DNA of 32,000 bases from Candidatus Peregrinibacteria bacterium (GTDB lineage: Bacteria > Patescibacteriota > Gracilibacteria > CAIRYL01): positions 25,782-57,781 of the forward strand of contig JACRHZ010000017.1 in the NCBI GenBank assembly GCA_016220175.1, read 5' to 3'. The position numbers were made by a program, and so were the translations under genes. This document shows, piece by piece, positions 2 through 31,003 of this stretch. Position 1 is the stretch's first letter. Each line of letters starts with the position of its first letter. The notes under the pieces are model-generated. The model was not told the DNA's origin, searched no databases, and saw only the letters and a program-made list of their open reading frames with translations.

Positions 2-436
2 GACGATTTCATTCGAAAACCATGGCGATCAAAAGAACTCATCGCAAGAGTATATGCGGTGGTACGACGCGGGTTTAAGTGTGATCAGAATTCTACGAAT
101 ATTCTCAAACAGGGAAAATTTTGTCTCGATCTCAAGTTGAAAAAACTCAAAGTTGGCGAGAAAGAAATAATTTTGGGAAATATTCTTGCGGTTATTCTGG
201 AAAGATTTCTCAAAAAACCAAATGTGCTCCATTCATATGAAGATCTCATTCAGCATGTTTGGGGATCCTCTGGAGATACTTCTTATTCCAGAGATCAGCT
301 CAATAAGCTTCGTGTGCATATTGCTCACTTGAAAAAAGAGCTCGGAGAAAGAGGATCGAAACATATTCGCACTATTCATCGGACGGGATATGTATGGGAG
401 ACAGGGAGGAAGCAGGGGGCAGGAAGTAGGAAGTAG
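2..436 (+). CDS. OmpR/PhoB-family response regulator, C-terminal part (5' end lies off the window)
   Basis: Frame 2 is open from the window edge. DDFIRKPWRSKELIARVYAVVRRG matches the end of a receiver domain (DDYxxKPF...L.ARv.A..RR). A winged-helix trans_reg_C-like region follows (...EKEIILGNILAVILERFLKKPNVLHSYEDLIQHVWG...IRTIHRTGYVWE). The last ~9 codons and the TAG stop lie in the GGAAGTA repeat array. Confidence 0.85.
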   Translation, partial: DDFIRKPWRSKELIARVYAVVRRGFKCDQNSTNILKQGKFCLDLKLKKLKVGEKEIILGNILAVILERFLKKPNVLHSYEDLIQHVWGSSGDTSYSRDQLNKLRVHIAHLKKELGERGSKHIRTIHRTGYVWETGRKQGAGSRK

Positions 437-484
437 GAATAAGGAAGTAGGAATAAGGAAGTAGGAATAAGGAAGTAGGAAATA
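422..484. repeat. tandem heptamer array, 9 units of GGAAGTA/GGAATAA
   Basis: Read directly: ggaagta ggaagta ggaataa ggaagta ggaataa ggaagta ggaataa ggaagta ggaaata. It overlaps the stop codon of the response regulator. Confidence 0.95.
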
Positions 485-493
485 CGAAAAACT

Positions 494-569
494 GAGAGCG
501 AAGAGTTAATAGCGAAGAGCGAAGAACGAAAAGCAAATAATTTTTAGCTCTTAGCTTTTAGCTCTTAAC
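494..569. repeat. imperfect palindrome made of heptamer words (AAGAGCG-like arm vs YTTAGCT arm)
   Basis: Left arm 505-527 (gttaatagcgaagagcgaagaac) matches the reverse complement of 547-569 (gctcttagcttttagctcttaac) at about 18 of 23 positions. Each arm is itself 7-periodic. It lies between convergent genes. Confidence 0.7.
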
Positions 570-635
570 TATTTTGTGCGGATCACGCCTCCTGGCCTGA
601 CTGAGCAATGGTCAAAATTAATTCATAACTCAAAA

Positions 636-2219: not shown

Positions 2220-5200
2220 ATGAAATCTACACATCACCATTTTTTTTCTCGTAAATTCCTGGGCATCTTCGGAAGCGTGATGCTTCTTTTCGCTGGCATG
2301 CAGATGATGTTTTCGGTGTCGAGAGCTGAAGCCGTTCAAATAATCCCTCAGTGTAATGGGAAAGATGCTACCTTATATGTAAATGCGGGAGTAATTGTAC
2401 ACCCCGGAAAACCTGACAATGGAGATGCTTATGCAGGAACTTTGACGGGGGACAATAGTGATGATGTCATCGTGGGGACAGACGGCAATGATGTCATTAA
2501 TGCAGGGAATGGGAAAAATACGGTTTGTGCTCAGGGAGGAAATGACACTATAACTTCGGGGCAAAAAGATGATTGGGTCGATGCTGGAGATGGAAATGAT
2601 CGAGTAGATACTGGAAATGGAAATAACACTGTAAACGGTGGCGATGGAAACGATATTATTACCGCTAAGGAGCATGGTGACTCTGTAAATGGAGGTGCGG
2701 GATTTGATTTTTGTAAGGTAGATAATGGAAATAATGATGTCACTGGGTGTGAAGCCGATGATGATAAGGGAATTATCATCGTAAAAGATGCACAACCTGA
2801 TGACGCACAGGATTTTCATTTTACTGGTGAGCTCGGAAATTTTGATCTTGATGATGATGCAGATGGGGCATTATTAAATTACAAAGCTTTTTCTCCTCAC
2901 TCCGGAACTTTGACTGTTCAAGAAAGCGATATTCCAAGCGGATGGGCACTAGATCATATTTCCTGTAATGATCCTGATCATGGAACTTCTCAAAATGGAA
3001 ACTCAGTGGATATTGATTTGAATAATAACGAAGCAATTGTTTGTACTTTTACAAATACTCAGGTCGGGAAGCTTACCATCACAAAAGCAATAGGAGATGG
3101 AGCAAATGCCGATGGGAAAGAGTTTAAATTCATCGGAAATCCTGATGCAAATCCGAATATTGGAGAATTTTCACTCTATGTTGATAGTGATCCTGAGACC
3201 CCATATTTTAAAATGTTTAGCTCAATACCTGTTGGATCATACAAAATGAAAGAACTGGTTCCTTCAGAATGGATGCTTTCGGGAGTTTCTTGTGATGGGA
3301 CATCAAAAACGCCAGATGAGGATTCATACTATACTTTTGATGTGATGAAAGGTGCCGATATGAACTGTACATTTACCAATAAAAAGGATACAGACGGCGA
3401 CGGAATTCCTGACGATGAAGATGACACTCCCAACGGAGTCGGAGACATTACTATTCAAAAAGTTACTGATGAAGAAACTTCAAATATCTTCACTTTTTTT
3501 GGAGGTAGTCTTGATAACGATACTTTTTCACTACATGCTAATGGTCAAAAAGTATTCCCAGACATGCCCGCTGGATCGTATTCCGTGCAAGAATTTGATA
3601 CTCCGAGATGGCTTCTTTCAAGTGTTGTATGTAATGACGAACAGCAATCCCCAGATGAAAACAACATGATCATTGTAGATCTCGAGAATCATGAACAAAT
3701 TGTCTGCACCTTTTATAATAAGAAGGATACAGATGACGACGGCACACCAGATGATGAAGATGATACTCCGTTTGGAGAAGGAAATATCACCATTGTAAAA
3801 TCTGCAACTCCAGAAGATGGACGAAATTTTGACTTTCAGAGTGATTCGTTAGCCAGTTTTACTCTTAACGATGACGGTGATGGTCCACTCGTAGACACAA
3901 AATTGTTTTCAAAAGGTGTGGGAATACATTTTGTTACAGAGGAATCACTCGATGGATGGATTTTGACCGACATCGTATGTGTTACTGACGATCAGTCTGA
4001 CACAACTGAAAGACATATTGCTGAGAGATATGTTTCGATTGATCTCGATAAAGATGAAAATATTAGCTGTACATTCACGAACAAGAAGGATACAGATAAT
4101 GACGGTGTGCCAGATATTGATCCAGCGCATCCAGAACTTGGCGGAGATAATTGTCCAAATGATAAGAATTCAGGACAAGAAGATGCCGATGGTGATGGAA
4201 AAGGCGATGTTTGTGATTCAACCCCGAATGGCATTGGGAAAATTACGATTCAAAAAACTGTGAGCCCAAATGAAGAAGGTACATTTGGATTTACAGCAGA
4301 CAGCAATACTGAAGGTAACCCTGATCTCGAAGACTTTAATTTAGTTGTTAATGCTAACAACCAATACTTGGGTGAAAAAATATTCGATTTAGCACCTGTT
4401 GGCTCGTATACGATAACAGAAGCTGCTACTCAGGGATGGATGCTTTTTGGTATTTCTTGTGATGGAACAACACAAGATGTCGGACCTCTAACTATTGATC
4501 TTAAAATGGATGATGAAATTACCTGCACATTTGTAAATAAGAAAGATACAGATAATGATGGAATCCCTGATGATGTAGATCCAACTCCAAATGGAGTTGG
4601 CACAATTACGATTCAAAAAGACATAACAGAAATGACGACTGATCAGTTTAGGTTTTCAGTAGTAGATCATGATTCTATGCCTTATGGTGATCCATTTACG
4701 CTAGATGTTAACGCTGGTACTTCTGAGATTCCAGAGAAAGAAACATTACTATCTGTACCCGTTGGGTCATATACAGTGACCGAATCTGAAACCGTAGGGT
4801 GGAAAATTTTCGGCGTTTCTTGTGATAATGAACAAAAAAATCTCACTGGGAATTCTTCATTCACTGTTGATCTGGTTGCGAATCTTCAGGATATTACGTG
4901 TATAGTTACAAATGAACCTATAGATACTGATCAAGACGAAATACCGGATATCCGTGATAATTGTCCATTAGATCCAAATACAAATCAGCAAAATACGGAT
5001 GCTAATTTTGAAAATGGTGATTCTCTTGGAGATGCATGCGATCCAGATGATGATGGAGATGGGATTTTTGATCTTCCAAATGGAGAAGAGCAGCCAAATC
5101 CAGATAACTGCCAATATGTTCCAAATCAAGATCAAACCGATACCGATGGCGATGGAATTGGGGATGCATGTGAGAATGATACTGATGGTGATGGAATACT

Positions 5201-7151
5201 GAATGAGACTGATAACTGTCCACTTGTTGCAAATCCCGGTCAGGAAAATGGCTATGGAACCTCTGCGGGAGATGCTTGTGAAGACACCGATGTAGATACT
5301 ATTCTTGACGCAAGAGATAATTGTCCCTTAGATCCAAATACAAATCAACAAAATACCGATGCTAATTTTGAGAATGGTGATTCTCTTGGAGATGCATGTG
5401 ATCTGGATGACGATGGAGATGGTTTTCCTGACGTAGCAAATGATCAAAAACCAGCTGATAACTGTCAATTTGTTCCAAATCAAGATCAAACCGATACCGA
5501 TGGCGATGGGGCAGGAAACGCGTGTGATTTAACTCCGAATGGAGCAACAAAAATTACAATCCAAAAAGCGGTATCTCAGGCAACGACCGACCAGTTTACA
5601 TTTTCAATAGTTCACGATTCTGTACCTTATGTTGATCCGTTCGCCTTAGATGTTAATACTGACACGGAAACTATTCCGGAGGTAAAAACATTTGAATCAG
5701 TTCCTGCTGGGTCATATACAATAACAGAAAGTGCCACTCAGGGATGGACGGTTGATCATACTACTTGCATAAAGAATAATGACGCTGAACATCCAATAAA
5801 CGGAACGAATCCAATGACCATTAGTCTTGTTTTGGAAGACGATATTACTTGTACATTTACCAATGCTCCGGTAGTGGTTCCTCCTGAAGTTGGAACAATT
5901 ACTATCAAAAAAGAATTAACAAAAGGAGCTACGAATAGTGACTTTAAATTTTCAGGAGATCTCGGCACTTTTTCTTTGGACCTCAATGTAAACGATCAGG
6001 CGAATGAAGATCAAAAAACGTTTGAATCAAAAGCCGTTGGATCATATACAGTGAAAGAAGAAAATCAAACTCCTGGATGGAAATTCTCGAACATTTCTTG
6101 TATTGATGATCATGATGAAACTCCAGACGTAGTTGTGAACAATGAAACTCGTTCGGTTGCGATGACTCTTTCTGATGGGCATCACATGACTTGTACATTT
6201 AAAAATGAGCCTGTAGAAGTTCCACCTGAGAATGGTCCACCACCAGGAGGTTCACCACAAGTTCCACCACCAAGCAGTGGAGGAGGAATGGTTATTTGCC
6301 CAATTCCATCACTCGAACCGGTATATTTTGACATTTATCCGGTAAAAGGAGCTGAGCTCAAAAATCTTTCAGAAATTTCCTATAGCGTAACCACAGGAAG
6401 TCCTTCTACATTTTCCATTTCCGTAAACGGTGCCCTCCAAAATATCACTACTACAAAACTCCCAAATGGTGGATATCACATCAGTGCTGATGTTTCTTCA
6501 CTTGCTCTCAACGGAAATGTTCAAATAGTTCTTACTGCTGGTGGAACAGTATTAACTGGAAGTGGTACGAGTTTGCAGACAAAAGAAATTTGTCCAAAGG
6601 ATGCGTTTTACACGGTTCTTATTTCTCCGACATTACAGGAAGAAAAAAATACTCAGCCGGGAGGAGAAGAATTATTCAATACAACTGAACCGGGAAGACT
6701 CTTTTCTGAAGAGGAACTCAAGAAAACGCTCACGAGAGGATATGCTGCGTCAGTAATTCTCGATCTTCTTGGAAAAAGCGCTGCGGATGTCGTTCCAAAA
6801 AGATGTTATCCAGATGTATCATTAAACCATCCATTTGTTCGTGAAATTTGTCTTGCAAAAGAGTTAGGGCTTATGCAGGGATATGGGAATGGATTATTCC
6901 GTCCAGATCAACAAATGACAAAAGCAGAGGCAATAAAGACCATATACAAGGCTATCGGAAGGAGATATTCTCCAGAAAGTCCACACAAATGTGCGGATTT
7001 GGTACCAGGAGCCTGGTATATCCTTCCTATGAGAGAAAGTGTTAAGGATGGTGTCCTAGAAGTGGATTCTGATAATATGTGCAAACCTGGTGAAAAGATT
7101 ACCCTTGCCATATTTGAAAACATGATCAAGGTATTCTCTCAGTATTTTTAA
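2220..7151 (+). CDS. giant secreted surface protein: signal peptide, RTX-like Ca-binding repeats, 8 beta-sandwich modules, thrombospondin type-3 repeats, C-terminal SLH anchor
   Basis: N-terminal signal peptide (hydrophobic core then SRAEA/VQ). GGNDTI/GDGNDRV/GNGNNTV/GDGNDII nonapeptide-like repeats. Eight modules each end in CTF(T/V/Y/K)N and contain a GW-x-L/F...SC motif, linked by KKDTDxDGxPDD. DNCP...NxDQxDxDxDGxGDAC TSP3 repeats. Pro-rich linker. YPDVSLNHPFVREICLAKELGLMQGYGNGLFRPDQQMTKAEAIKTIYKAI fits the SLH consensus. Confidence 0.85.
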   Translation: MKSTHHHFFSRKFLGIFGSVMLLFAGMQMMFSVSRAEAVQIIPQCNGKDATLYVNAGVIVHPGKPDNGDAYAGTLTGDNSDDVIVGTDGNDVINAGNGKNTVCAQGGNDTITSGQKDDWVDAGDGNDRVDTGNGNNTVNGGDGNDIITAKEHGDSVNGGAGFDFCKVDNGNNDVTGCEADDDKGIIIVKDAQPDDAQDFHFTGELGNFDLDDDADGALLNYKAFSPHSGTLTVQESDIPSGWALDHISCNDPDHGTSQNGNSVDIDLNNNEAIVCTFTNTQVGKLTITKAIGDGANADGKEFKFIGNPDANPNIGEFSLYVDSDPETPYFKMFSSIPVGSYKMKELVPSEWMLSGVSCDGTSKTPDEDSYYTFDVMKGADMNCTFTNKKDTDGDGIPDDEDDTPNGVGDITIQKVTDEETSNIFTFFGGSLDNDTFSLHANGQKVFPDMPAGSYSVQEFDTPRWLLSSVVCNDEQQSPDENNMIIVDLENHEQIVCTFYNKKDTDDDGTPDDEDDTPFGEGNITIVKSATPEDGRNFDFQSDSLASFTLNDDGDGPLVDTKLFSKGVGIHFVTEESLDGWILTDIVCVTDDQSDTTERHIAERYVSIDLDKDENISCTFTNKKDTDNDGVPDIDPAHPELGGDNCPNDKNSGQEDADGDGKGDVCDSTPNGIGKITIQKTVSPNEEGTFGFTADSNTEGNPDLEDFNLVVNANNQYLGEKIFDLAPVGSYTITEAATQGWMLFGISCDGTTQDVGPLTIDLKMDDEITCTFVNKKDTDNDGIPDDVDPTPNGVGTITIQKDITEMTTDQFRFSVVDHDSMPYGDPFTLDVNAGTSEIPEKETLLSVPVGSYTVTESETVGWKIFGVSCDNEQKNLTGNSSFTVDLVANLQDITCIVTNEPIDTDQDEIPDIRDNCPLDPNTNQQNTDANFENGDSLGDACDPDDDGDGIFDLPNGEEQPNPDNCQYVPNQDQTDTDGDGIGDACENDTDGDGILNETDNCPLVANPGQENGYGTSAGDACEDTDVDTILDARDNCPLDPNTNQQNTDANFENGDSLGDACDLDDDGDGFPDVANDQKPADNCQFVPNQDQTDTDGDGAGNACDLTPNGATKITIQKAVSQATTDQFTFSIVHDSVPYVDPFALDVNTDTETIPEVKTFESVPAGSYTITESATQGWTVDHTTCIKNNDAEHPINGTNPMTISLVLEDDITCTFTNAPVVVPPEVGTITIKKELTKGATNSDFKFSGDLGTFSLDLNVNDQANEDQKTFESKAVGSYTVKEENQTPGWKFSNISCIDDHDETPDVVVNNETRSVAMTLSDGHHMTCTFKNEPVEVPPENGPPPGGSPQVPPPSSGGGMVICPIPSLEPVYFDIYPVKGAELKNLSEISYSVTTGSPSTFSISVNGALQNITTTKLPNGGYHISADVSSLALNGNVQIVLTAGGTVLTGSGTSLQTKEICPKDAFYTVLISPTLQEEKNTQPGGEELFNTTEPGRLFSEEELKKTLTRGYAASVILDLLGKSAADVVPKRCYPDVSLNHPFVREICLAKELGLMQGYGNGLFRPDQQMTKAEAIKTIYKAIGRRYSPESPHKCADLVPGAWYILPMRESVKDGVLEVDSDNMCKPGEKITLAIFENMIKVFSQYF
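4956..5509 (+). repeat. intragenic ~200-bp direct duplication with 360-bp period inside the TSP3 region of the giant gene
   Basis: 4956-5155 and 5316-5509 both read gataattgtcc(a/c)ttagatccaaatacaaatca(g/a)caaaatac(g/c)gatgctaattttga(a/g)aatggtgattctcttggagatgcatg... and end in ...gttccaaatcaagatcaaaccgataccgatggcgatgg. Confidence 0.9.
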
Positions 7152-7177
7152 TACGTAAACATTGAATGCACTAAAAA

Positions 7178-7211
7178 GCAGCTTCTTGAGAAATTCAGGA
7201 AGCTGCTTTTT
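7178..7211 (+). terminator. rho-independent terminator after the giant gene
   Basis: gcagcttc (7178-7185) pairs with gaagctgc (7199-7206) and is followed by ttttt. Confidence 0.8.
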
Positions 7212-7275
7212 CAAAATGAGCAGCAAGCTCTTCACTTTTTTGCAGAAATAATGTATAATTGTGGGATACAAAAAA

Positions 7276-10594: not shown

Positions 10595-10597
10595 GGG

Positions 10598-10639
10598 GGA
10601 AGTAGGAAGTAGGAATTAGGAAGTAGGAAGTAGGAATAT
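10598..10639. repeat. second GGAAGTA heptamer array (6 units)
   Basis: ggaagta ggaagta ggaatta ggaagta ggaagta ggaatat, abutting the flippase start codon (10594, minus strand). Confidence 0.95.
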
Positions 10640-10806: not shown

Positions 10807-11868
10807 ATGGGTCAGTTTTTTACTCTTCCCCCCAGACAGCTTTCGATTTTTCTCGAAAAAGTTCTTGCGAAAGGGCACAGGGTTATTGCCCCTCAAAAAA
10901 AAGGTCTCGTTCGATTTGAAGAATTGCATAATGCAAAAAATCTTTATCTGAAAGAGAACTCCTATTTTCCACTCAAAGAATATTTTTTTGGAAAACACGA
11001 AACTATTTTCGAATACAATAATGCAAAGATTCGTATTCCTAAAATCAAAACGCAACAAAAAATATTTTTTGGGATTCGTAGATGTGATTTGAATGCCATA
11101 GCCCATCAAGATCTCGTATTTCTGAGCGGGAAACATCCCGATCCCTATTACACTGCACGAAGAAAGGGGAGTGTTTTTATCGGATACCATTGCAACACGC
11201 CTCCGAGTAAATATTGTTTTTGTGGCTCGCTCGATCTGGAAGACTTTTACGATATTATGATTTGGAGAAAAAAAGAGTATTTTCTCCTTCACGTTCAAAC
11301 AAAAGCTGGAGAGAAGTTTCTGAAACCATTCCTTTCTCTGTTCAAAAAGAAAAAATATTCACTTACTCAAAAAGACCAAAAAATTCCGGGAACGAATCTC
11401 CTCAAGAAAAAAAATATTCGTAAACTGTATGGGAGTCGTGATTGGGAAAAAGGAGCGGCAATGTGTTTAAGTTGTAGCGCGTGTACTACGCTCTGTCCCA
11501 CGTGTTATTGTCACGAACTCTCGGATATTCCTGATCTTAAAAAATCGGGGACTGGAAAACGAGTTCGGTGTTGGTCTTCTTGCCAGCTGAAGTCATTCAC
11601 GCGTGTTGCGGGGAATCATATTTTTCGAGAAAAACGCGTACAGAGGTTCAAACATCGAATTTATCATCAGCTCGAGTATTTCAAAGAAAAAAATGGGAAG
11701 AATCTCTGTGTTGGATGCGGACGATGCATTTCCGGATGTCCGACGAGAATTGATTTTATTTCTCTTATTAATAGTATGGAGCCATCGAAAAAGAAAATAA
11801 GTCAAAAGATGCAGAAAAAGATTCATAAGAGGTTTCCGGTTTCTGCGTACACGAAGGAGAATTTTTAA
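10807..11868 (+). CDS. hydB: group 3b [NiFe] hydrogenase (sulfhydrogenase-type) beta subunit, 2x[4Fe-4S]
   Basis: Cys clusters CLSCSACTTLCPTCYC and CVGCGRCISGCP. AsrA/HydB-like size (353 aa). First gene of a B-G-D-A ordered cluster. Confidence 0.75.
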   Translation: MGQFFTLPPRQLSIFLEKVLAKGHRVIAPQKKGLVRFEELHNAKNLYLKENSYFPLKEYFFGKHETIFEYNNAKIRIPKIKTQQKIFFGIRRCDLNAIAHQDLVFLSGKHPDPYYTARRKGSVFIGYHCNTPPSKYCFCGSLDLEDFYDIMIWRKKEYFLLHVQTKAGEKFLKPFLSLFKKKKYSLTQKDQKIPGTNLLKKKNIRKLYGSRDWEKGAAMCLSCSACTTLCPTCYCHELSDIPDLKKSGTGKRVRCWSSCQLKSFTRVAGNHIFREKRVQRFKHRIYHQLEYFKEKNGKNLCVGCGRCISGCPTRIDFISLINSMEPSKKKISQKMQKKIHKRFPVSAYTKENF

Positions 11869-11901
11869 TCCAAATTTCTTCATCACAAAAATCTCCACCA
11901 A

Positions 11902-12708
11902 ATGTCACAAAAAAACGCCCTCATCCCTCGGCCCGTAAAAGTTCTCGATGTCTATCATGAATCGCCCGATACGATTACGATCACGCTTGATATGCAAGTG
12001 GATCATGAACCGGGACAATTTATTCAGGTGAGTCTCTTTGGAATTGGAGAGGCTCCAATTTCCATTAGTTCATACTCCAACAAATTTTTAAAAATTAGCG
12101 TTCGTGCCATCGGAAACGTCACCAATGAACTTGCGAAAGTGCAAAAAGGAGATATTCTGCACGTTCGTGGTCCATATGGAAATGGATATCCGCTGAAGGA
12201 ATATTTTGGAAAGAGTATAGTTTTAATTGGTGGGGGATGTGGAGTTGCGCCACTTAAAGGGGCAATTGACTACATTGAAGCGCATCGAGAAAAATTCCAT
12301 GATATCTATCTTTTTCTTGGGTTTCGCGGACCTGCTGATATTCTTTTTAAACGGGAACTCGTCGAATGGAGAAAAAAGTATCACATTGAAACGACAGTGG
12401 AGGAAGTTCCGCAGGGAACTTGTTATACCGGACAAAGCGGATACATCACCAAAGCACTCAGTGCATTTTCCATTTGCGGTCCAGACCGCTTTGTTGTTTT
12501 TATGTGTGGTCCTCCACCAATGATGAACGCATCTGTAAAAATTCTTCGTGAAAAAAAAGTTCCTTTTTCACGAATGTTTGTGAGTACTGAACGACTCATG
12601 TACTGTGCAATCGGGCAATGTTGCCACTGTATGGTTCGAGATAAATTTATCTGTACTGATGGACCGGTGTTTTGCTATGAAGATATCAGGAGAATTAAAT
12701 CCGACTGA
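11902..12708 (+). CDS. hydG: group 3b hydrogenase gamma subunit (PyrK/AsrB-like FAD/NAD(P)H oxidoreductase with [2Fe-2S])
   Basis: Ferredoxin-reductase-like layout: GQFIQV..., VLIGGGCGVAPL nucleotide-binding loop, MCGPPPMM. C-terminal CAIGQCCHCMV...CTDGPVF cysteine cluster. Confidence 0.8.
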   Translation: MSQKNALIPRPVKVLDVYHESPDTITITLDMQVDHEPGQFIQVSLFGIGEAPISISSYSNKFLKISVRAIGNVTNELAKVQKGDILHVRGPYGNGYPLKEYFGKSIVLIGGGCGVAPLKGAIDYIEAHREKFHDIYLFLGFRGPADILFKRELVEWRKKYHIETTVEEVPQGTCYTGQSGYITKALSAFSICGPDRFVVFMCGPPPMMNASVKILREKKVPFSRMFVSTERLMYCAIGQCCHCMVRDKFICTDGPVFCYEDIRRIKSD

Positions 12709-12723
12709 AGTAATTTTTAATTT

Positions 12724-12868
12724 TGTCCCGCATTGCGGGATTAAATTTCTAAATAATTTCTAAATTCTAATTTTTAAAATTTGTTATTGATAATACTCAG
12801 ATATTTCTCATTTAGAAATTAAACATTAAAATTTATTTAAAAATTCGAAATTCGAAATTTAAAATTTT
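12724..12868. repeat. AT-rich palindromic intergenic element, copy A (hydG-hydD spacer)
   Basis: GC hairpin tcccgc-att-gcggga (12726-12740). Left arm ttaaatttctaaataatttctaaattctaatttttaaaa. Unrelated loop. Right arm tttagaaattaaacattaaaatttatttaaaa is roughly the reverse complement. AAATTCG heptamers at 12841-12868. Confidence 0.8.
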
Positions 12869-12888
12869 TCCCCCTCTTCTCCAAACGC

Positions 12889-13647
12889 ATGGAAAAAACG
12901 AAGCTTAAAGTCGGCATCTTCTCTATCACCGGCTGTGCAGGATGTCAGCTCAGCGTGATTTTTAACGAAGATGAACTCTTGCCGCTCTTAAGTCTCATCG
13001 ATCTCCATGCGTTTCCATTTATCAAAAAAGTAAATGCGGAAGAAAATTTTGACTACGTGCTTATGGAAGGCTTAGTGGCAACGAAGGAAGATCTTCAAAA
13101 GCTCAAAAAAATTCGAAAAAATACAAAAAATCTCATTGCCCTTGGAGCATGTGCGCATACAGGATGCATTCCCGCATATCGAAATTTCACACTAAAAAAC
13201 AGATTTAACACTGTATATAACCACACATTGGAAAATATCAGAGGAAACCTCAAAAGCATTTCTCCATCGCCAATAGACGCTCATGTAAAGGTCGATTACA
13301 CCATTCCCGGATGTCCGCCGGATAAAAATGAAATTCTTTCTACGCTTTACAAAATTGCGAATGGTCTTACTCCTCGTCCGTATTCCGAACCGGTTTGCGT
13401 TGAATGTCGAAGAAATGGGAATCCGTGTTTACTCGAATTTGATAAACCATGTCTTGGACCAATAACTCGCGGTGGGTGCAATTCGGTCTGCACGAATTCC
13501 GGATTTGAATGTTGGGGGTGTCGAGGACACACTGATGACGCGAATGAAAAAGTTTTGATCGAATATTTTCGAAAAAAAGGATACTCGAGGAAGTGGATTG
13601 ATGAGAGGATGAAGACGTTTGTGGGGATGAAAATGGGAAAATTTTAA
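12889..13647 (+). CDS. hydD: group 3b [NiFe] hydrogenase small (delta) subunit
   Basis: Proximal-cluster motifs ITGCAGCQ, GACAHTGC, IPGCPP. A Cys-rich distal region follows (CVECRRNGNPC...CLGPITRGGCNSVC...CWGCRG). Confidence 0.85.
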   Translation: MEKTKLKVGIFSITGCAGCQLSVIFNEDELLPLLSLIDLHAFPFIKKVNAEENFDYVLMEGLVATKEDLQKLKKIRKNTKNLIALGACAHTGCIPAYRNFTLKNRFNTVYNHTLENIRGNLKSISPSPIDAHVKVDYTIPGCPPDKNEILSTLYKIANGLTPRPYSEPVCVECRRNGNPCLLEFDKPCLGPITRGGCNSVCTNSGFECWGCRGHTDDANEKVLIEYFRKKGYSRKWIDERMKTFVGMKMGKF

Positions 13648-13800
13648 ATTTTGAAATTCCAAATTTCTAAATAATTTCTAAATCGTAATTTTTAAACAAC
13701 GAAAAAGAAAATTCATGCTGAACAATATGAAATTTTGAAATTAAAAATTAGAAATTAAGATTTATTTAGAAATTTAAAATTTTAAAATTAAAAATTTCTC
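13640..13800. repeat. AT-rich palindromic intergenic element, copy B (hydD-hydA spacer)
   Basis: Left arm aaatttctaaataatttctaaatcgtaatttttaaac. Right arm ttaaaaattagaaattaagatttatttagaaattt is its near reverse complement. RAAATTA heptamers at 13737-13764. Confidence 0.8.
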
Positions 13801-13817
13801 AACATCGTCTAAAATTT

Positions 13818-15098
13818 ATGACACAGACAATTTCTCTCAACCACATCACCAAAATCGAAGGTCATGCTTCGCTCCGTATTGTCGTAGAGAAGGGGAAAGT
13901 AAAAAAATGTAACCTTTCTTCCGTAGAAGGTGCGCGATATTTTGAAGAACTTCTGATCGGAAGAGATTATACCGAAGCATTTGAACTCACTTCTCGAATT
14001 TGTGGAATTTGCAGTTCTGCTCATGTGATTTGTTCTATCACTGCTGTGGAAAATGCGCTTGGAATGAAAGCATCTGAACAAACCCTCAGACTTCGCGAAC
14101 TCTTAACACTCGGCGAAAGGATTCGCAGTCATGCGACGCATCTTTATTTTCTCGCACTTCCAGACTATCTCGGATATGAGTCCGCAATGGCAATGATTCC
14201 AAAATACACAAAAGAAATTGAACGGGCGCTTCGGCTCATGAAAATAGGAAATCTCATCGTCAAAATAATTGGGGGGAGAGATCTTCATCCGGTTTCAGCC
14301 CACGTTGGTGGATTTTCTTCATTCCCGAGAGAAGAAGAAATCCAAAACTGCCAAAAAGAACTTCAAAGTGTCCTCAAAGATGCGATTAAAACTGCAAAGC
14401 TTTTTATGAAACTCAAATTTCAGAAGTTTGAACGTGAAATTGAAATGTTTTCGCTCACAGATTCAAAAGGATACGCAATGCTTCATGGGGATCTTACTTC
14501 CGGAAAACATGTCTATAAACAATCAGAATTTGAAAAATATTTTTCGGAATTTCACGAGCCGCATTCCACGTCGAAATTTGCGCTGAAAGAAGGCAAAGAA
14601 TACAGGGTTGGAGCGCTTTCGCGGCTGAATCATAATTCAGAGCAGCTTTTTCCCTACGCAAAAAAAATGCTGAAAAAATCCAAACTTCGCCTTCCATCAT
14701 ATAATCCGTTTTTGAACAATCTCGCTCAAGCGATTGAACTTGTTCATGCGATCGAACATGCGATTCACATTTTTTCGAGTCTGAAAATTCGATCAGAAAA
14801 AATTCGAAAGCCAGTTCTTAAAAAATCATGTAAAGGAATTGCGGGAATTGAAGTTCCGCGCGGAATTTTGTGGCATGAATATGAGTTTAATGCCAAAGGG
14901 AAAATTACCAAAGCGAACATCATTACTCCCACAAGCCAAAATGTAAGAGCAATTCAAGAGGATATCAGAACATTTCTTCCAACGGTTCTTCATCTTTCCA
15001 GACCAGAAATCGAACTCGAAATAGAAAAACTTATTCGCTCGTATGATCCGTGCTTTTCCTGTTCAACGCATTTTTTGGATGTGAAGTGGGAAGAGTAA
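13818..15098 (+). CDS. hydA: group 3b [NiFe] hydrogenase large (alpha) catalytic subunit
   Basis: N-terminal NiFe ligand motif RICGICSSAH. C-terminal DPCFSCSTH followed by an 8-aa tail (FLDVKWEE) of the kind removed by a maturation endopeptidase. Confidence 0.9.
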   Translation: MTQTISLNHITKIEGHASLRIVVEKGKVKKCNLSSVEGARYFEELLIGRDYTEAFELTSRICGICSSAHVICSITAVENALGMKASEQTLRLRELLTLGERIRSHATHLYFLALPDYLGYESAMAMIPKYTKEIERALRLMKIGNLIVKIIGGRDLHPVSAHVGGFSSFPREEEIQNCQKELQSVLKDAIKTAKLFMKLKFQKFEREIEMFSLTDSKGYAMLHGDLTSGKHVYKQSEFEKYFSEFHEPHSTSKFALKEGKEYRVGALSRLNHNSEQLFPYAKKMLKKSKLRLPSYNPFLNNLAQAIELVHAIEHAIHIFSSLKIRSEKIRKPVLKKSCKGIAGIEVPRGILWHEYEFNAKGKITKANIITPTSQNVRAIQEDIRTFLPTVLHLSRPEIELEIEKLIRSYDPCFSCSTHFLDVKWEE

Positions 15099-15110: not shown

Positions 15111-15150
15111 GGAGAGGACGCACATACGCATCCTCTCCGAGAGTTTTTTT
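15111..15150. terminator. GC-rich hairpin terminator between convergent hydA and copA
   Basis: ggagagga (15111-15118) pairs with tcctctcc (15131-15138). A T7 run lies at 15144-15150. Confidence 0.7.
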
Positions 15151-18763: not shown

Positions 18764-18840
18764 AGGAGGGAGAAAAAAAGAGAAAAAATATAAAAGATTG
18801 TTCACGAAAGGGAGATATTTACTGAGAGGAAATTTTGAAT

Positions 18841-18898
18841 TTTGTCTGGCATTGCGGGATTAAATTTTTAATAAATTCCAATCTCTAATTTTTAAAAT
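18841..18898. repeat. AT-rich element, copy C (half element, copZ-copA spacer)
   Basis: tttgtctggcattgcgggattaaatttttaataaattccaatctctaatttttaaaatac aligns along its length with 12722-12783 of copy A at roughly 80% identity by eye. It has the same plus-strand orientation although the flanking genes are on the minus strand. Confidence 0.75.
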
Positions 18899-19139: not shown

Positions 19140-19154
19140 ACCATTACCTATGGT
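19140..19154. promoter_or_regulatory. putative CsoR operator upstream of copZ-copA
   Basis: ACCATTACCTATGGT, identical to 21255-21269. Contains the palindrome TACC-TAT-GGT. It lies 34 bp upstream of the copZ start. Confidence 0.5.
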
Positions 19155-21254: not shown

Positions 21255-21269
21255 ACCATTACCTATGGT
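21255..21269. promoter_or_regulatory. putative CsoR operator (autoregulatory) upstream of csoR
   Basis: ACCATTACCTATGGT with the full palindrome TACCTATGGTA (21260-21270). It lies just downstream of the candidate -10. Confidence 0.5.
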
Positions 21270-21731: not shown

Positions 21732-23030
21732 ATGAGAGAACTTTCGCCTTTCACGCATCCATTTCGAGGGAAAATTTCAGTTCCCGGCTCAAAGTCTCTT
21801 ACCAATAGAGCGCTCCTTCTCGCTGCTCTCGCTCCAGGGCAAACAATCTTGAAAGAATGGCTTTCCAGTGAAGATACAGAGGTGATGATAACCGCACTCC
21901 GAGAATTTGGTGTGGATATATATTTTGAGGGAAAAGAAAGGGAACTTACAATTGTTGGCACTTCTGGAAAATTTCAAAATAAAAGCGATCTAGAGATTTT
22001 TTGTGCAAATTCTGGAACATCACTTCGCTTTCTCACCGCAGTTTCTGCGCTTCGAAGTGGAAAAACTCTTCTCACCGGAGCACCTCGCATGAAAAAAAGA
22101 CCGCTTCGTGATCTTTCGGATGCGCTTTCACAAATGGGGGTTCTCCTGAATTATCCGGAAAAAAAAGGGTTTCCTCCCATACAAATTTTAGGAAATCAAG
22201 TCCTTCAGGGAGGAGATATTCACATCTCTGGAAAAACTTCTTCACAGTTTCTGAGTGCGCTCCTTCATATTGCTCCATTCGCTGGAAACCCAGTTCGCAT
22301 TACTTTGAAAAATGAACTGGTTTCTGAGCTATATGTTCGCATGACAATTGGACTCCTTGAAAAATTTGGAGTACATGTGCGTCAGAATGAGAGGAGTACT
22401 GAATTCTGTATTGACCCTCAGCCACTTTCTTCCCCAGGCGAGGTTCATATCGAAGGCGATGCTACCTCAGCCACATATCCACTCGGAATCGCACTCGCAA
22501 CTCAGGGGAGTATTATTGTACAAAATATTTGTTCAAACTCGCTACAGGGAGATGCATATTTTCCCGAAAAAGTTCTCAAAAAAATGGGAGCAATGGTTCA
22601 AATGTCTTCTGACGGGATTTTTCTCACTGCACCTCAGAATCTTCTCCCGCTTGACGATATTCATCTCGGAGAAATGCCAGATGCCGCTATGACGGCAGTT
22701 GTACTTTCTGCGCTTGCAAAAGGAGTTTCTCGAATTTCTGGGCTTTCCACCCTTCGTGATAAAGAGTGTGATCGAATCTCTGCACTTGTTTCGAACTTAG
22801 CGAGCATGGGAGCCAATGTTCTTTCGGGAAAAGATTTTATTGAGGTTCATGGTGATCCACTTGAGCTTCATGGGGCAGAAATTGAAACATTTCATGATCA
22901 TCGTATCGCGATGTGTTTCTCGATCTTGGGAGCTGTAATTCCTGACGTCCGAATTCTCCATCCCGAATGTGTGGAGAAGACCTATCCCACATATTGGCAG
23001 GAGTATGAGGAATGGAGGGGGCAATTTTAA
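21732..23030 (+). CDS. aroA: 3-phosphoshikimate 1-carboxyvinyltransferase (EPSP synthase, class I-like)
   Basis: VPGSKSLTNRALLLAALA N-terminal motif. 432 aa, with LRDKECDRI and HDHRIAMCFSILG near the C-terminus. Confidence 0.92.
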   Translation: MRELSPFTHPFRGKISVPGSKSLTNRALLLAALAPGQTILKEWLSSEDTEVMITALREFGVDIYFEGKERELTIVGTSGKFQNKSDLEIFCANSGTSLRFLTAVSALRSGKTLLTGAPRMKKRPLRDLSDALSQMGVLLNYPEKKGFPPIQILGNQVLQGGDIHISGKTSSQFLSALLHIAPFAGNPVRITLKNELVSELYVRMTIGLLEKFGVHVRQNERSTEFCIDPQPLSSPGEVHIEGDATSATYPLGIALATQGSIIVQNICSNSLQGDAYFPEKVLKKMGAMVQMSSDGIFLTAPQNLLPLDDIHLGEMPDAAMTAVVLSALAKGVSRISGLSTLRDKECDRISALVSNLASMGANVLSGKDFIEVHGDPLELHGAEIETFHDHRIAMCFSILGAVIPDVRILHPECVEKTYPTYWQEYEEWRGQF

Positions 23031-23060
23031 ATTTTGAAATTTAAAATTAAAAAGCAAATT
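23023..23060. repeat. AT-rich element fragment, copy D (aroA-aroK spacer)
   Basis: Shares the 19-mer aattttaaattttgaaatt with 13640-13658, then aaaattaaaaagcaaatttct. Confidence 0.5.
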
Positions 23061-25331: not shown

Positions 25332-26675
25332 TTATTTATAATTTGCATCTGCAAACCAATTTTTCAATGAGGAAGTAGCGGTATTTGGAAAAATGCGGAA
25401 TGTTTTGAGTACAAATTTATCTATAAACTTTTGAACAGCGCCATTATCAGTTGTTCTCCCGAACTCATATCCTTTTTCCTTTGCAATCCGTTTTACACGG
25501 CTATCATATTTCCCGCCGGGATAAACGATACACAAGATTTCTTTTCCGAGCTGCCCTTCCAAAATATTTTTTGATTTCTCAAATTCAGTGGCAATATTTG
25601 CTTTTGAAAGTTTTTGAAGATCCTGATGTTGATCAGTATGCGAACAAATTTCATGCCCAGATTCAGATAATTGTTGAATCTCTCCCCAATTCATATACCA
25701 CGGATCTGTTCCCGGTTTTCCTGTGATAATTGCAAAATTCCCTTTCATTTTGTATTTTTCCAGTAATGGAAATGCATTTTCAAAATTATTTCCATACCCA
25801 TCGTCAAACGTCAGCATTACCGATTTTTTGGGAAGGATTTTTTTCTTTTTGAGAATAAGATCGAGATCTGAAAAGGTGAGTGTCTCGACTCCATTGTTTT
25901 GAAAAAATTGCAGAAATTCTTCCAATTTTTTTAGGGAAATGGAAAGTTTATAGTATGTCTGATCAGGATCATTTTTGGGGACATCTAAGACATGATGAAA
26001 CATGAGAATAGGAAGATACACTTCTCTTTTTTGAATATCTTTTGTAAGGATATTTTTCTCAGAATCAAAAAAAGAAGACTCTTTTCCTTCTACATTTTCT
26101 CGAAGTCGGTACACCATTTCGATCACTTCAGCACGTGTGAGAAAGTGATCAAATTTTAATACAGAAGGGGGAATCGCATTTTTTTCTGAGAGTGCTTTCG
26201 CAAATGGGGCATACCACTCACCGCCCTGATGCTCTTCTAAATGAAAAAATTTCACCAAAGTTTTTGCCGCTTCCACAAATGAAAGAGGTCTCTCTCCATG
26301 AAATGTTCCATCCGGATATCCATCAATATATCCCTTTTGTTTTGCATTACAAACGAGTGGAGCAAACCATTGATTTGAAGCAACATCGAGAAATGTGTTC
26401 GTATGTTCAGGGCAGAGTTCTGTTCCCAGTTTTGTGGGGTCAATATTTTCGAGTATTTTTACAAATTCTGCTCGATTTATCCGAGTATTTGGACGAAAAG
26501 TCCCATGTGCATATCCTTCTACGAGATGATGCGATGCTGCGTATTCTATAGATTCGGCATAAGCACTAGAATCCAAAACATCTGAAAAAATATGTGCTCC
26601 AAAAGAAATTTCTGTATTTCCAAAAATGCTGATGAGAAAAAAACTAAATACAGAAAAATATCTCCATTTCATCAT
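25332..26675 (-). CDS. secreted SLH-domain (x3) polysaccharide deacetylase (CE4)
   Basis: Signal/anchor MMKWRYFSVFSFFLISIFG. SLH repeats FSDVLDSSAYAESIEYAASHHLVEGYAHGTFRPNTRINRAEF and FLDVASNQWFAPLVCNAKQKGYIDGYPDGTF, plus a third degenerate copy. CE4 motifs LTFDDGY and SHTDQH. Start set at ATG 26675 so it does not overlap asnS (the ORF track extends to 26750). Confidence 0.85.
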   Translation of the reverse strand: MMKWRYFSVFSFFLISIFGNTEISFGAHIFSDVLDSSAYAESIEYAASHHLVEGYAHGTFRPNTRINRAEFVKILENIDPTKLGTELCPEHTNTFLDVASNQWFAPLVCNAKQKGYIDGYPDGTFHGERPLSFVEAAKTLVKFFHLEEHQGGEWYAPFAKALSEKNAIPPSVLKFDHFLTRAEVIEMVYRLRENVEGKESSFFDSEKNILTKDIQKREVYLPILMFHHVLDVPKNDPDQTYYKLSISLKKLEEFLQFFQNNGVETLTFSDLDLILKKKKILPKKSVMLTFDDGYGNNFENAFPLLEKYKMKGNFAIITGKPGTDPWYMNWGEIQQLSESGHEICSHTDQHQDLQKLSKANIATEFEKSKNILEGQLGKEILCIVYPGGKYDSRVKRIAKEKGYEFGRTTDNGAVQKFIDKFVLKTFRIFPNTATSSLKNWFADANYK

Positions 26676-26677
26676 AG

Positions 26678-27991
26678 TTATGGAGTAAGACGATTGAGCA
26701 TTCGTGGGAAGGGGATTGTTTCGCGAATATGATGAATTCCTGAAACCCATCTTGTCATTCGTTCAATACCAATGCCAAAACCACAATGTGGTACAGATCC
26801 ATATTTTCTAAGATCAAGATACCATTCAAAAATGGACACGGGAAGATTGTGAGATTTTATTCCTTCGAGTAATTTTTTATAATCATCTTCTCTCTGGCTT
26901 CCTCCAATAATTTCACCAAACCCACGAGGAGCAAGTACGTCAGCATTAAAAACACGGTCTCCGTTACTCGGATCTGTTTTTCTTGTGGTATAGTTTTTCA
27001 TGTAGAACGGCTTAATACTTTTTGGCCAGTTTTTCACGATCACTCCTGCATCCGAATCTTTTGTAAGGAGCTCTTCCTCAGGTGCTCCTAAGTCTTCACC
27101 GTACTTAATTCCTGAGCCAAGTTCTTGGAGTTTTTTGATAGCATCAGGGTATTCGTAATGAATGAATGGAATTTCCAGGAACATTTCTAATTCTTTGATG
27201 TTTCGTTCCAACATTTCTAATTCTTTTTTCCCGTGCTCCAAGACGAATTTCACCATCGCTTTCATGCACTCCTCTTGGATTTTCAAACTTTCCTCGTGAT
27301 CAATAAAAGCAATTTCTGGGTTCAGAGTCCAGAATTCAGTGAGGTGTTTTCGCGTTTTTGATTTTTCTGCTCGAAAATTTGGACAGAGGTCATACACTTT
27401 TCCAAATGCCATACACATAGCTTCAAGGTAGAGTTGACCATTTTGTGTGAGATATGCCGTGTCATCGAAATATTTTACTTCAAAAAGATCAGTAGTACCT
27501 TCGCATGCATTCGGAGTAAATGTTGGAGTATCGAGCTCAATGTACGAATTTTCATTGAAATACTTCTGGAATCCGGTTTTTACCAAATGGCGGATACGAA
27601 GAACAGCCCACTGACTCTCTGACCTCAGCCACAAGTGTCGATTGTTCAGCAAAAAATCAGGACCGTGATCTTTTTTCCCAATCGGATATTCTCCTTCTAC
27701 CAGTTGAATAATCTTAATATTTTTCACCTGCAATTCGAAAACATCATCTTGTCTTGGATGCTTCGTTACTTCTCCCGTTACATGCACAGAAGATTCAATA
27801 GTCAGTCTTTTTGCCGTTTCAAACACTTCCTCCGAAACAGAATCTTTTCCGACAATTCCCTGAAGAAAACCGCTTCCATCACGAAGCTCCAGAAAAATAA
27901 TTTTTCCGCTTTCTCGTTTATTGCACATCCACCCTCTCAAAGTAATTTCTTCCCCGACGTGATCTTTCATATTTCGGATTTCGATGTTCAT
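26678..27991 (-). CDS. asnS: asparaginyl-tRNA synthetase (class IIb; archaeal-type AspRS not fully excluded)
   Basis: OB-fold N-terminus, FRAEKSKTRKHLTEFW motif 2, GFGIGIERM motif 3, ...IPFPRMLNRLTP C-terminus. YLTQNGQLYLE (Gly where AspRS has QSPQ) favours AsnRS. Confidence 0.75.
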   Translation of the reverse strand: MNIEIRNMKDHVGEEITLRGWMCNKRESGKIIFLELRDGSGFLQGIVGKDSVSEEVFETAKRLTIESSVHVTGEVTKHPRQDDVFELQVKNIKIIQLVEGEYPIGKKDHGPDFLLNNRHLWLRSESQWAVLRIRHLVKTGFQKYFNENSYIELDTPTFTPNACEGTTDLFEVKYFDDTAYLTQNGQLYLEAMCMAFGKVYDLCPNFRAEKSKTRKHLTEFWTLNPEIAFIDHEESLKIQEECMKAMVKFVLEHGKKELEMLERNIKELEMFLEIPFIHYEYPDAIKKLQELGSGIKYGEDLGAPEEELLTKDSDAGVIVKNWPKSIKPFYMKNYTTRKTDPSNGDRVFNADVLAPRGFGEIIGGSQREDDYKKLLEGIKSHNLPVSIFEWYLDLRKYGSVPHCGFGIGIERMTRWVSGIHHIRETIPFPRMLNRLTP

Positions 27992-30229: not shown

Positions 30230-30261
30230 AGGAAGTGAGTGAGTAAGTTGTAAAGATCCAG

Positions 30262-30420
30262 TTAGAAATTTTGAATTCTTAATTTTGAATTTTGAATTAA
30301 ATTCTAATTTCTAATGTTTAAACACAAGGTGTAAACTGGTGAAAAATGGAATGCTTAAAAATTAAGATTTAAAATTTATTTAAAAAATTCAAAACTCAAA
30401 ATTTATAATTCAAAATTTTT
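30262..30420. repeat. AT-rich palindromic intergenic element, copy E (dut-PBP spacer)
   Basis: Left arm TTTTGAA/TTCTTAA heptamers (30269-30296) plus aaattctaatttctaat. Right arm cttaaaaattaagatttaaaatttatttaaaa plus AAAATTC-type heptamers (30384-30418). The outer ~35 nt of the arms are near-complementary. Confidence 0.8.
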
Positions 30421-30861
30421 TTACCCCGTGCTTCCAAATCCACCTCTCGTATTCGCCTCAATTTCATGATGTTCCATCTCTTCCCAAATTGCTTTTTCAA
30501 TTTTCACAAACATTCCCTGGGCAATTTTCTCCCCGCGCTTCACCCACACTGTTTCATCAGAAAAATTCCTGACCTGTATGAGGATTTCGTCTTGAGGACC
30601 ACAATAATCCTGATCAATAATTCCAATAGAATGCGGCATATCGAGATGTTTCTTTTTCGGGGTTGATGATCTCGGAGCAATAATAAGCGCATGATTCGCT
30701 GGTGTTGAAATAACAAGTCCGGTAGAAATTCTTGCAATTTCTCGTGGAGGAATCTCTGTATCTTTTGCAGCAACAAAATCAAATCCCACTGCCCCCGGAG
30801 TTTCAAACTGTGGCAAGGGAAGATCTTTTCCATGCGGAAGACGGGTAATCCGAATTTTCAT
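30421..30861 (-). CDS. dut: dUTP diphosphatase (trimeric dUTPase)
   Basis: 146 aa. AVGFDF, GIIDQDYCG and C-terminal RGGFGSTG motifs. Confidence 0.9.
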   Translation of the reverse strand: MKIRITRLPHGKDLPLPQFETPGAVGFDFVAAKDTEIPPREIARISTGLVISTPANHALIIAPRSSTPKKKHLDMPHSIGIIDQDYCGPQDEILIQVRNFSDETVWVKRGEKIAQGMFVKIEKAIWEEMEHHEIEANTRGGFGSTG

Positions 30862-30914
30862 TTTCTCTTAAAAATAAAAAACTGCAGGACGCAGTATAGC
30901 AGAAATCAATGACG

Positions 30915-31000: not shown

Positions 31001-31003
31001 CGC

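Follow-up and report, generated by a model that had tools for sequence, protein, structure and literature searches.

Why should the spacers between the genes of one bacterium be built from tandem words that differ in sequence and agree in a length of seven nucleotides? The question was raised by a 32,000-nt stretch of DNA (the window, G+C 39.5%) from a Candidatus Peregrinibacteria bacterium (GenBank assembly GCA_016220175.1, contig JACRHZ010000017.1, positions 25,782 to 57,781). A first-pass annotation, made from the sequence alone, had listed six heptamer words in these spacers and had taken the opposed ones for the arms of long imperfect palindromes. With a probability of roughly 60%, we regard the arrays as heptanucleotide long simple-sequence repeats that arose by lineage-specific 7-nt slippage and inverted duplication and proliferated in the non-coding DNA of one Peregrinibacteria group, an AT-rich subset having spread secondarily as a family.

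Periodicity was measured as the identity of a sequence with itself at a given lag, and dinucleotide-preserving shuffles were used as the null model. Self-identity at lag 7 in the pooled intergenic DNA was 0.384 compared with 0.295 in the shuffles (z 9.9), with harmonics at lags 14 and 21 (z 5.2 and 4.7). Codon period 3 was the sole periodicity in the coding DNA of the window. Period 7 was therefore enriched in the pooled spacers over both coding and shuffled DNA, as had been anticipated, and six spacers carried the signal singly (z 3.9 to 9.6). Array coverage was determined, for periods 2 to 13, from segments in which 15 or more of 18 positions matched at the given period. Period-7 arrays covered 11.1% of intergenic bases (0.1% in shuffles) and 0.17% of coding DNA; no other period covered more than 1.3% of intergenic bases.

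Tandem Repeats Finder (TRF) reported 12 period-7 arrays of 2.7 to 9.3 copies each in the window. Every array listed earlier was recovered at or within a few bases of its position, and one extra array was found at 23023-23048. Complementary arms of 32 to 56 nt were present in five of the seven array-bearing spacers; the opposed arms were indeed complementary in all five, at 78 to 91%. The arms can pair in several registers offset by 7 nt, and in three of the five paired spacers the fold was much stronger than that of shuffles (z -5.5 to -8.5). Sense and antisense strands folded about equally across the palindromes, the antisense strand often better. Since the sense strand was not systematically more stable, selection on a sense-strand RNA hairpin was unsupported, and the palindromes are best described as symmetric DNA objects and not as structures tuned to one transcript. 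A G-quadruplex explanation was rejected because GGG and CCC runs are absent from every array. A search of the whole window against Rfam 15 gave no match at the gathering score. In eight cases the elements started 0 to 7 nt from the upstream stop codon, sometimes supplying the last codons and the stop, and arrays ended at genes or overlapped only final codons. Coordinates are collected in the table.

Table. Heptamer arrays, palindromes and gene content of the window. Copy numbers are those of TRF; MFE, predicted minimum free energy.
Feature	Position	Strand	Details
Purine-rich GGAAGTA/GGAATAA array, about nine units	421-484	+	TRF 421-481, period 7, 8.7 copies; overlaps last codons and stop (434-436) of the response-regulator gene, protein tail ...GRKQGAGSRK*; MFE about 0 on + strand
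AAGAGCG-type palindrome	495-573		Left arm 501-532, right arm 542-573 (AGCTCTT/AGCTTTT), 9-nt loop, arms 78% complementary; TRF AGAGCGA x5.7 (495-534), TTAGCTC x3.4 (544-567); between convergent response-regulator and serS genes; fold 488-590 -27.9 / -23.4 kcal/mol, z -2.5 / -1.8 (modest)
GGAAGTA array, family D1	10598-10639	-	TRF 10598-10636, x5.6, 93% matches; second copy of array 421-484; MFE -1.1 kcal/mol, z 0.5
hydG-hydD palindrome, left part (copy A of 72-nt element)	12707-12778	+	Small hairpin CCCGCATTGCGGG (12727-12739) and left arm AAATTTCTAAATAATTTCTAAAT; arms 12744-12778 / 12811-12845 80% complementary
hydG-hydD palindrome, right arm	12811-12868	+	Core AAAATTTATTTAAAAATT and AAATTCG units (TRF 12841-12859, x2.7); stops 20 nt before hydD ATG (12889); fold 12735-12870 z +0.2, no better than shuffles
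hydD-hydA palindrome with copy B of 72-nt element	13625-13797	+	56-nt arms 13640-13695 / 13741-13796, 82% complementary; TRF AAATTAA x8.7 (13738-13796); exact core AATTAAGATTTATTTAGAAATT (13753-13774); begins within final hydD codons, stops 20 nt before hydA ATG; fold 13636-13802 MFE -34.5 kcal/mol, z -5.5
Copy C of 72-nt element	18826-18897		Between copZ and copA, inverted relative to transcription; weak profile match
AATTTTA array, AT-rich, family D4	23023-23053	+	TRF 23023-23048, x3.6; overlaps aroA stop codon, ends 33 nt 5' of aroK ATG
pbp-dut palindrome	30266-30418		Outer arms TTTTGAA (30266-30298) and TTCAAAA (30386-30418), 91% complementary; inner arms 30283-30324 / 30352-30393; TRF AATTTTG x4.6 (30267-30298), period 7 x9.3 (30355-30418); dut stop codon 3 nt from its start; fold 30260-30422 MFE -37.1 kcal/mol, z -6.8
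AAAGTAC/GTACTTT palindrome	30916-31000		Arms 30916-30955 / 30961-31000, 40 nt, 5-nt loop, 83% complementary, perfect 18-nt core; TRF AAAGTAC x4.4 (30917-30947), TTTGTAC x4.4 (30969-30999); 4 nt past stop codon of - strand gene 31004-31912; fold 30905-31010, two strands, MFE -39.8 / -32.0 kcal/mol, z -8.5 / -7.2
Gene content, 5' part			Response-regulator C-terminus, serS (636-1898), 1643-aa SLH/SpaA surface protein, subtilase, MurJ/Wzx-type flippase
[NiFe]-hydrogenase operon	10807-15098		Four genes
Gene content, 3' part			copA, copZ, DsbD-cupredoxin gene, csoR, ytxH, aroA (EPSP synthase, 21732-23030), aroK
Remaining 3' genes			Phosphorylase, SLH deacetylase, asnS, PBP, dut, further SLH protein

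The two GGAAGTA arrays had no complementary partner and were predicted to be unstructured on both strands. The left arm of the palindrome at 501-573 reads AAGAGTT, AATAGCG, AAGAGCG, AAGAACG, and the right arm, as its reverse complement, AATAGTT, AAGAGCT, AAAAGCT, AAGAGCT; compared unit by unit, the arms mismatch repeatedly at positions 2 and 6. Because the outermost unit of both has the odd ending GTT, the arms appear to be mirror copies, and because units 2 to 4 share one G/T difference at unit position 6, they were probably homogenised separately afterwards. A palindrome of hexamer, not heptamer, period was also seen at 2159-2221 (AAAAAT in three copies against TTTTTA/ATTTTT in five). It reaches the ATG of the 1643-aa surface protein gene, and a near-consensus sigma-70 promoter (TTGACA-17-CATAAT with TG, 2100-2128) lies just 5' of it.

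Relatives were collected as contigs around AroA and SerRS homologues, the nearest showing 58% AroA and 74% SerRS identity. Sixty loci from Woesearchaeota and assorted metagenome contigs served as controls. A search of metagenome contigs with an alignment of four AroA sequences (universally conserved peptides) gave 80 loci at 35 to 41% identity, too distant to count as relatives, which were used as a control distribution. The contig with 58% AroA identity (L015), from a different sample, gave a lag-7 z of 7 to 8 and three spacers with inverted array pairs: AAAATGT/ACATTTT 5' of aroA, GAATTAC/GTAATTC in the aroA-aroK spacer, and AATTTTC/GAAAATT between asnS and the next gene downstream. A contig from a third sample (L097, 55% AroA alignment identity) gave z 5.2, with GAGAAGG, CATTCGT and ATAGAAG arrays and paired 14-mers. 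Single arrays were seen in a related complete genome of 1.37 Mb, the source of L014 and L103 ((GAATTA-type) x4, 5' of aroA), and in L102 (GAATCAA x6, 12406-12472, 5' of a flippase-family gene). No period-7 signal was detected in L012/L100, L098 or L101. The 60 controls gave a mean lag-7 z of 0.33 (sd 1.36, maximum 4.5). Period 7 was the modal repeat period even there, at 0.5% of intergenic bases, which agrees with a general heptanucleotide excess and with the slippage proposal of Mrazek 2007, as relayed by later papers.

The period-7 arrays are thus lineage-restricted and not limited to the window. The earlier suggestion of a common process behind the shared period gained support, since the same period recurs with different words in related contigs. 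Comparison of related spacers, which had also been proposed, gave differences in both words and lengths: the serS-response-regulator spacer is 199 nt in the window and 37 nt in L103, and that between ytxH and aroA measures 44 nt and has no array in the window, against 140 nt with a palindrome in L015. Because the words of L015 and L097 differ, spacers differ and several relatives lack the signal, turnover is taken to be rapid and distribution patchy. Units of ATTCGT type (AATTCGT, CATTCGT, AAATTCG) were observed in three organisms at non-corresponding positions (L015 1852-1893 and 7100-7135, L097 4100-4136, window 12841-12859), in L015 twice after CTTAATCC(C)T, so that some heptamer words may be shared across the clade.

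The first-pass annotation knew of no described element class with this construction. Here it was mistaken, since heptanucleotide long repeats, the paired arrays of Xanthomonas, the TTTTGAA/TTCAAAA repeats of Nostoc and the hmw hairpin of Haemophilus have all been described. Among long simple-sequence repeats, those with heptanucleotide units are the commonest in most of the prokaryotes whose genomes were surveyed, and a polymerase footprint of about 7 nt that favours slippage was proposed as the cause (Mrazek, Guo and Shah 2007, PNAS, via PMC4679880, PMC4692102). The window showed head-to-tail copies, over-representation and confinement to non-coding DNA, as expected of that class. As far as those repeats are characterised in the citing papers, they are also tandem, over-represented, mostly intergenic, phylogenetically scattered and subject to rapid turnover, and they differ from the present arrays, which are extremely dense (11% of intergenic bases, the genome being probably small) and mostly paired with a complementary array. 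We found no earlier report of such repeats in a candidate-phyla-radiation lineage.

Pairing has a close parallel in Xanthomonas. Its genomes each carry about 185 arrays of GGGAATC type (Rehm et al. 2015, PMC4692102), of which 70 to 75 closely spaced opposite-strand pairs have stem-loop potential, and array type (single or inverted pair) is kept between species while length varies (PMC4692102). The five paired spacers of the window resemble these closely spaced inverted pairs. Xanthomonas uses one G-rich word family with G-quadruplex potential, whereas many words, mostly AT-rich and without G3 or C3, were found here. For hmw1A/hmw2A of Haemophilus influenzae, ten ATCTTTC repeats in the 5' untranslated region form the left arm of a long hairpin that RNase III cleaves (Rapun-Araiz et al. 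2025, PMC12721329). The cleavage tunes expression, and both the hairpin and transcription are needed for repeat-number change (PMC12721329), making this the only compared system with a demonstrated mechanism. A long imperfect hairpin with a heptamer-array arm near a start codon is common to both; in the window it is predicted and its transcription assumed. The hmw case is a single contingency locus of a pathogen, with a G-rich stretch and not a second regular array as right arm (PMC12721329), whereas the architecture here is pervasive and lies between housekeeping genes. In marine Beggiatoaceae, cyanobacteria and Bacteroidetes, direct repeats of TAACTGA stop one or a few nucleotides 5' of starts (MacGregor 2015, PMC4679880). 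They are unpaired and forward, like the (TACTTCC)6 read on the - strand of array 10598-10639, which stops 3 nt before the flippase ATG (10594); they consist of one word conserved across phyla (PMC4679880), while the words here vary. TAACTGA itself was absent from the window.

Heterocystous cyanobacteria reportedly carry short tandemly repeated repetitive (STRR) sequences, said to have been described by Mazel in 1990. The window resembles them in having several words per genome in intergenic and intra-operon positions, hydrogenase operons included, and near start codons. Nostoc has contiguous TTTTGAA/TTCAAAA near start codons, the deletion of which alters reporter expression (bioRxiv 10.1101/2022.06.06.494920), and the same word pair occurs at 30269-30418 of the window. 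Arrays of TTGTCAG type lie in its hup/hyp region (PMC2408588), and few of its arrays are paired as inverted repeats (PMC4692102). The STRR1-3 words (CCCCAGT, TTGGTCA, CAACAGT) did not occur as tandem copies in the window or in L015 and L097. Belonging to another phylum and using other words, the present arrays resemble cyanobacterial STRR sequences in their working without being members of the class in the strict sense. The construction is accordingly an extreme case, in a new lineage, of repeats known from cyanobacteria, Xanthomonas and Haemophilus, and not a new element class. What is new is the candidate-phyla-radiation host, the density, the near-systematic pairing and the coexisting conserved AT-rich core.

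The AT-rich arrays required separate treatment. The earlier claim that the six words are unrelated failed for the AT-rich ones: AAATTCG, GAAATTA, AAAATTT and CAAAATT are variants on an AAATT core and belong to one dispersed family. The spacers 12709-12888, 13648-13817 and 30230-30420 could be aligned with one another, and both pbp-dut arms match the arm profile of the family. A 72-nt element with CCCGCATTGCGGG and AAATTTCTAAATAATTTCTAAAT (family D11) is present in three copies, at 12707, 13625 and 18826; two of these have an identical 23-mer, and copies C and A are 76% identical. The 22-mer AATTAAGATTTATTTAGAAATT is identical at window position 13753 and L014 position 9945, although AroA of the L014 genome is only 49% identical to that of the window; variants lie at 12824 and 30367 of the window and at 413 of L015. 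A right-arm profile matched about 10 arms, all of them located in the window, in L014 or in L015. The conserved core ATTTATTTAGAAATT lies 3 to 45 nt 5' of start codons and is gene-oriented in five cases. A scan of viral contigs with the 18-nt core gave 22 single exact matches in AT-rich giant-virus and jumbo-phage contigs, none of which fitted the wider profile, and these look like chance matches.

In the explanation we favour, 7-nt units and blocks of 14 and 21 nt would be duplicated head to tail by strand slippage. Perfect blocks of a 14-mer (AGGAAGTAGGAATA, 3.9 copies at 428-481) and of a 21-mer (1.9 copies at 100%, 10598-10637) indicate recent duplication of several units at once. Because 7 is not a multiple of 3, coding sequence would be spared, and arrays would grow out to the stop codon and the next leader. 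An array may then be copied in inverted orientation through template switching or hairpin-primed synthesis, after which the arms would homogenise separately, giving a long imperfect palindrome with pairing registers 7 nt apart. These slippage and template-switch steps were derived from array anatomy and from what is established about simple-sequence repeats and quasi-palindromes, and the symmetry of the palindromes at the DNA level fits such a mutational origin. The specificity for period 7, the abutment of elements on stop codons, the rapid and patchy turnover, the dispersed copies and the analogues in Xanthomonas and Haemophilus also speak for this explanation. Within the AT-rich subset, some palindromes have also spread as the dispersed family with core ATTTATTTAGAAATT. 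Stems of 25 to 56 bp are predicted to end 20 to 54 nt 5' of the hydD, hydA, pbp and dut starts, transcription being assumed from intra-operon position. By analogy with hmw and REP elements, such stems, once transcribed, would serve between cistrons as structures for 3' ends or processing. Cleavage of RNase III type, or stabilisation of the transcript, would be likely, and true termination likely only where a U-tract follows the stem. Structure-free pyrimidine arrays could act as leaders before starts in an organism without Shine-Dalgarno sites.

Several points weigh against this explanation. Slippage is read here from array anatomy, its signature being variation in copy number. According to the Haemophilus study, repeat number changes through transcription and the RNA hairpin and not through polymerase slippage (PMC12721329), so the generating step may be RNA-dependent. 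For two paired elements (488-590 and 12735-12870), the fold is little if at all superior to that of shuffles. A U5 tract follows the stem in sense orientation in only one hairpin (30916-31000), and a simple consensus terminator scan called none of the heptamer hairpins. Slippage alone explains neither the frequency of complementary arms (five of seven array-bearing spacers) nor the identity of a 22-nt core between genomes as distant as those of the window and L014. Frequent pairing and the identical core hint at selection or mobility.

Repetitive extragenic palindromic (REP) sequences with their BIME composites, and MITEs (miniature transposable elements with inverted repeats), among them Correia, RUP and ERIC, are dispersed palindromic intergenic elements that often lie between co-transcribed genes and can stabilise transcripts or be RNase targets. 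To our knowledge, internal 7-nt periodicity is not a feature of any of these families. It is possible, if on balance unlikely, that the AT-rich palindromes are a small non-autonomous mobile or REP-like element with two ATTTATTTAGAAATT arms around a variable centre, to which period 7 is intrinsic. Such a reading covers the AT-rich subset only and overlaps with the slippage explanation. The subset is multi-copy, palindromic and intergenic, as these elements are, and a mobile origin would suit the three 72-nt copies within 32 kb, the shared 23-mer and 22-nt core, the reach of the arm profile into L014 and L015, and the breakage of independent assemblies inside copies. It would also suit the hydrogenase operon. 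Subunit genes overlap or are nearly adjacent in most homologous Woesearchaeota operons (55-63% identity), whereas the hydG-hydD and hydD-hydA spacers of the window measure 180 and 170 nt and consist almost wholly of palindrome; they are therefore secondary insertions or expansions, a point that speaks for the slippage explanation as well. Against mobility, the centres of the copies are unrelated, and neither a conserved full-length consensus nor terminal inverted repeats with a target-site duplication could be defined for the AT-rich copies. No transposase or REP-associated tyrosine transposase was found among the proteins encoded in the window. The core also stands at the same position upstream of aroA in L014 and L015, which looks more like conservation than insertion, and arrays with GC-containing words (GGAAGTA, AAGAGCG, AAAGTAC, GAATTAC, CATTCGT) share the period while lying outside the family.

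The leaders of the window genes bear on a different proposal, namely that the arrays are functional cis-elements read in 7-nt steps, either by a binder of single-stranded RNA (cold-shock proteins, one per heptamer, or ribosomal protein S1 at leaders rich in pyrimidines) or by a DNA-binding regulator, and tune translation or transcription in a lineage without Shine-Dalgarno sites. A Shine-Dalgarno core (GGAG/GAGG/AGGA) was absent from positions -20 to -1 of all 20 window genes (for example 12869-12888, 18764-18783 and 10595-10614), which is consistent with the listing of Peribacter in published work as Shine-Dalgarno-scarce and without CCUCC. The 20 leaders are G-poor and CU-rich (8% G, 20% C, 41% T), and CTCC/CCTC/TCCT/TTCC occurs in seven of them, resembling an anti-Shine-Dalgarno rather than a Shine-Dalgarno sequence. 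Unpaired arrays with the pyrimidine strand in sense, predicted to be structure-free, stop 3 to 4 nt 5' of the starts of the window flippase and of folE (GTP cyclohydrolase I) in L097, and (TTGATTC)n lies about 20 nt 5' of the flippase-family gene of L102. The absence of Shine-Dalgarno cores from 20 of 20 leaders lends some plausibility to arrays acting as leaders. The gene-oriented AT-rich core would suit a reader. Comparable roles have been proposed for TAACTGA and the Nostoc heptamers, and CspB is noted to bind heptamer repeats (PMC4679880; bioRxiv 10.1101/2022.06.06.494920). We nevertheless consider a 7-nt reader doubtful. The words differ almost wholly between sites and relatives, which is hard to fit to a single reader with sequence specificity; numerous arrays are found at 3' ends or separate convergent genes, the arrays are not adjoined by any candidate reader gene, and the orientation rule is broken at 421-484 and at L097 5775-5822. 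A CsrA-type reading of GGAAGTA as a GGA array was dropped because the motifs are not in hairpin loops. MurJ/Wzx flippase-family genes of two Peregrinibacteria both have an upstream heptamer array with the pyrimidine-rich strand in mRNA sense (TTGATTC and TACTTCC), which could be coincidence or a position-specific preference.

A broader scheme, which we likewise rate as rather improbable, would be a maintained RNA-coupled system. Hairpins cut by an RNase III-like enzyme would split operon mRNAs such as that of the hydrogenase, the same hairpins and their processing would make the arrays expand and contract, as reported for hmw, and unpaired arrays together with the ATTTATTTAGAAATT core would serve as substitute ribosome-loading leaders. 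If this were true, a candidate-phyla-radiation bacterium would have, in its heptad arrays, a tunable form of post-transcriptional control that extends across the genome.

It is very improbable that the elements are plain intrinsic terminators of an AT-rich genome combined with low-complexity sequence, with no special process at work. Their location at gene ends would fit, as would the A-tract, stem and U5 of 30916-31000 on the - strand and the U4 tract past the stem of 501-573 on the + strand, a marginal terminator feature. The AT-rich palindromes lack a stem with an immediate U-tract, the U-tail is missing from most heptamer hairpins and several arrays are unpaired. Dinucleotide shuffles never gave a period-7 signal, and equally AT-rich control loci were without it. 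Ordinary terminators do occur in the window, at 7176-7212 (AAAAAGCAGCTTC...GAAGCTGCTTTTT) and at 15111-15148 (GGAGAGGA...TCCTCTCC followed by T7), and because these coexist with the heptamer hairpins and are not periodic, the latter are not simply this organism's form of terminator. The earlier remark that ordinary terminators would not give the pattern was therefore sound, and the terminator account was largely refuted by the shuffle, control-locus and period-coverage tests. A small GC hairpin, ACTGCGTCCTGCAGT followed by TTTTTTATTTTT, lies at 30881-30895 (- strand), with the heptamer palindrome on one side and the dut start on the other; it may act as an attenuator of dut or be the true terminator of the gene upstream.

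An artefact of short-read metagenome assembly is hardly credible: unitig-level assemblies do break in arrays (L016 ends at 452 in the GGAAGTA/GGAATAA array and L011 starts at 13767 in the hydD-hydA palindrome), but every array is shorter than a read, two Logan contigs (run SRR12113407) are base-identical to the window along stretches of 11.3 and 4.7 kb, array parts included, and the same architecture recurs in three independent samples and assemblers.

Why 7 nt should be the favoured long-repeat unit in prokaryotes has been a standing question since 2007, and array function has been studied mainly at single loci in Haemophilus and Nostoc. The present lineage offers a compact natural experiment, with small genomes, about one-tenth of spacer DNA in heptamer arrays and similarly distant relatives that have one array or none. 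Repeat load can be set against replication, repair and RNase gene content, and both read-level repeat variation and processing sites can be tested. In practice, arrays fragment short-read assemblies and shift gene ends, C-terminal and stop codons being sometimes repeat units.

Further observations concern the genes of the window. The SLH-anchored surface protein (2220-7151) combines eight prealbumin-fold domains of SpaA type with thrombospondin type 3 and RTX repeats, and its gene has internal DNA repeats at a spacing of 339 to 363 nt. The longest open reading frames of the SLH deacetylase (25332-26750) and asnS (26678-27991), both on the - strand, overlap by 73 nt (26678-26750), and one start codon is probably mis-assigned. 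From its domain content, the hydrogenase operon looks sulfhydrogenase-like (group 3b). In the genome collection, its delta subunit is most closely related to proteins of Woesearchaeota (DPANN archaea), at 53 to 63% identity, an affinity that suggests inter-domain transfer. The 15-mer ACCATTACCTATGGT, an imperfect palindrome, has two exact copies (19140-19154 and 21255-21269; 0.01 expected) upstream of copZ and csoR in the copper-resistance cluster, and these sites are candidate CsoR operators.

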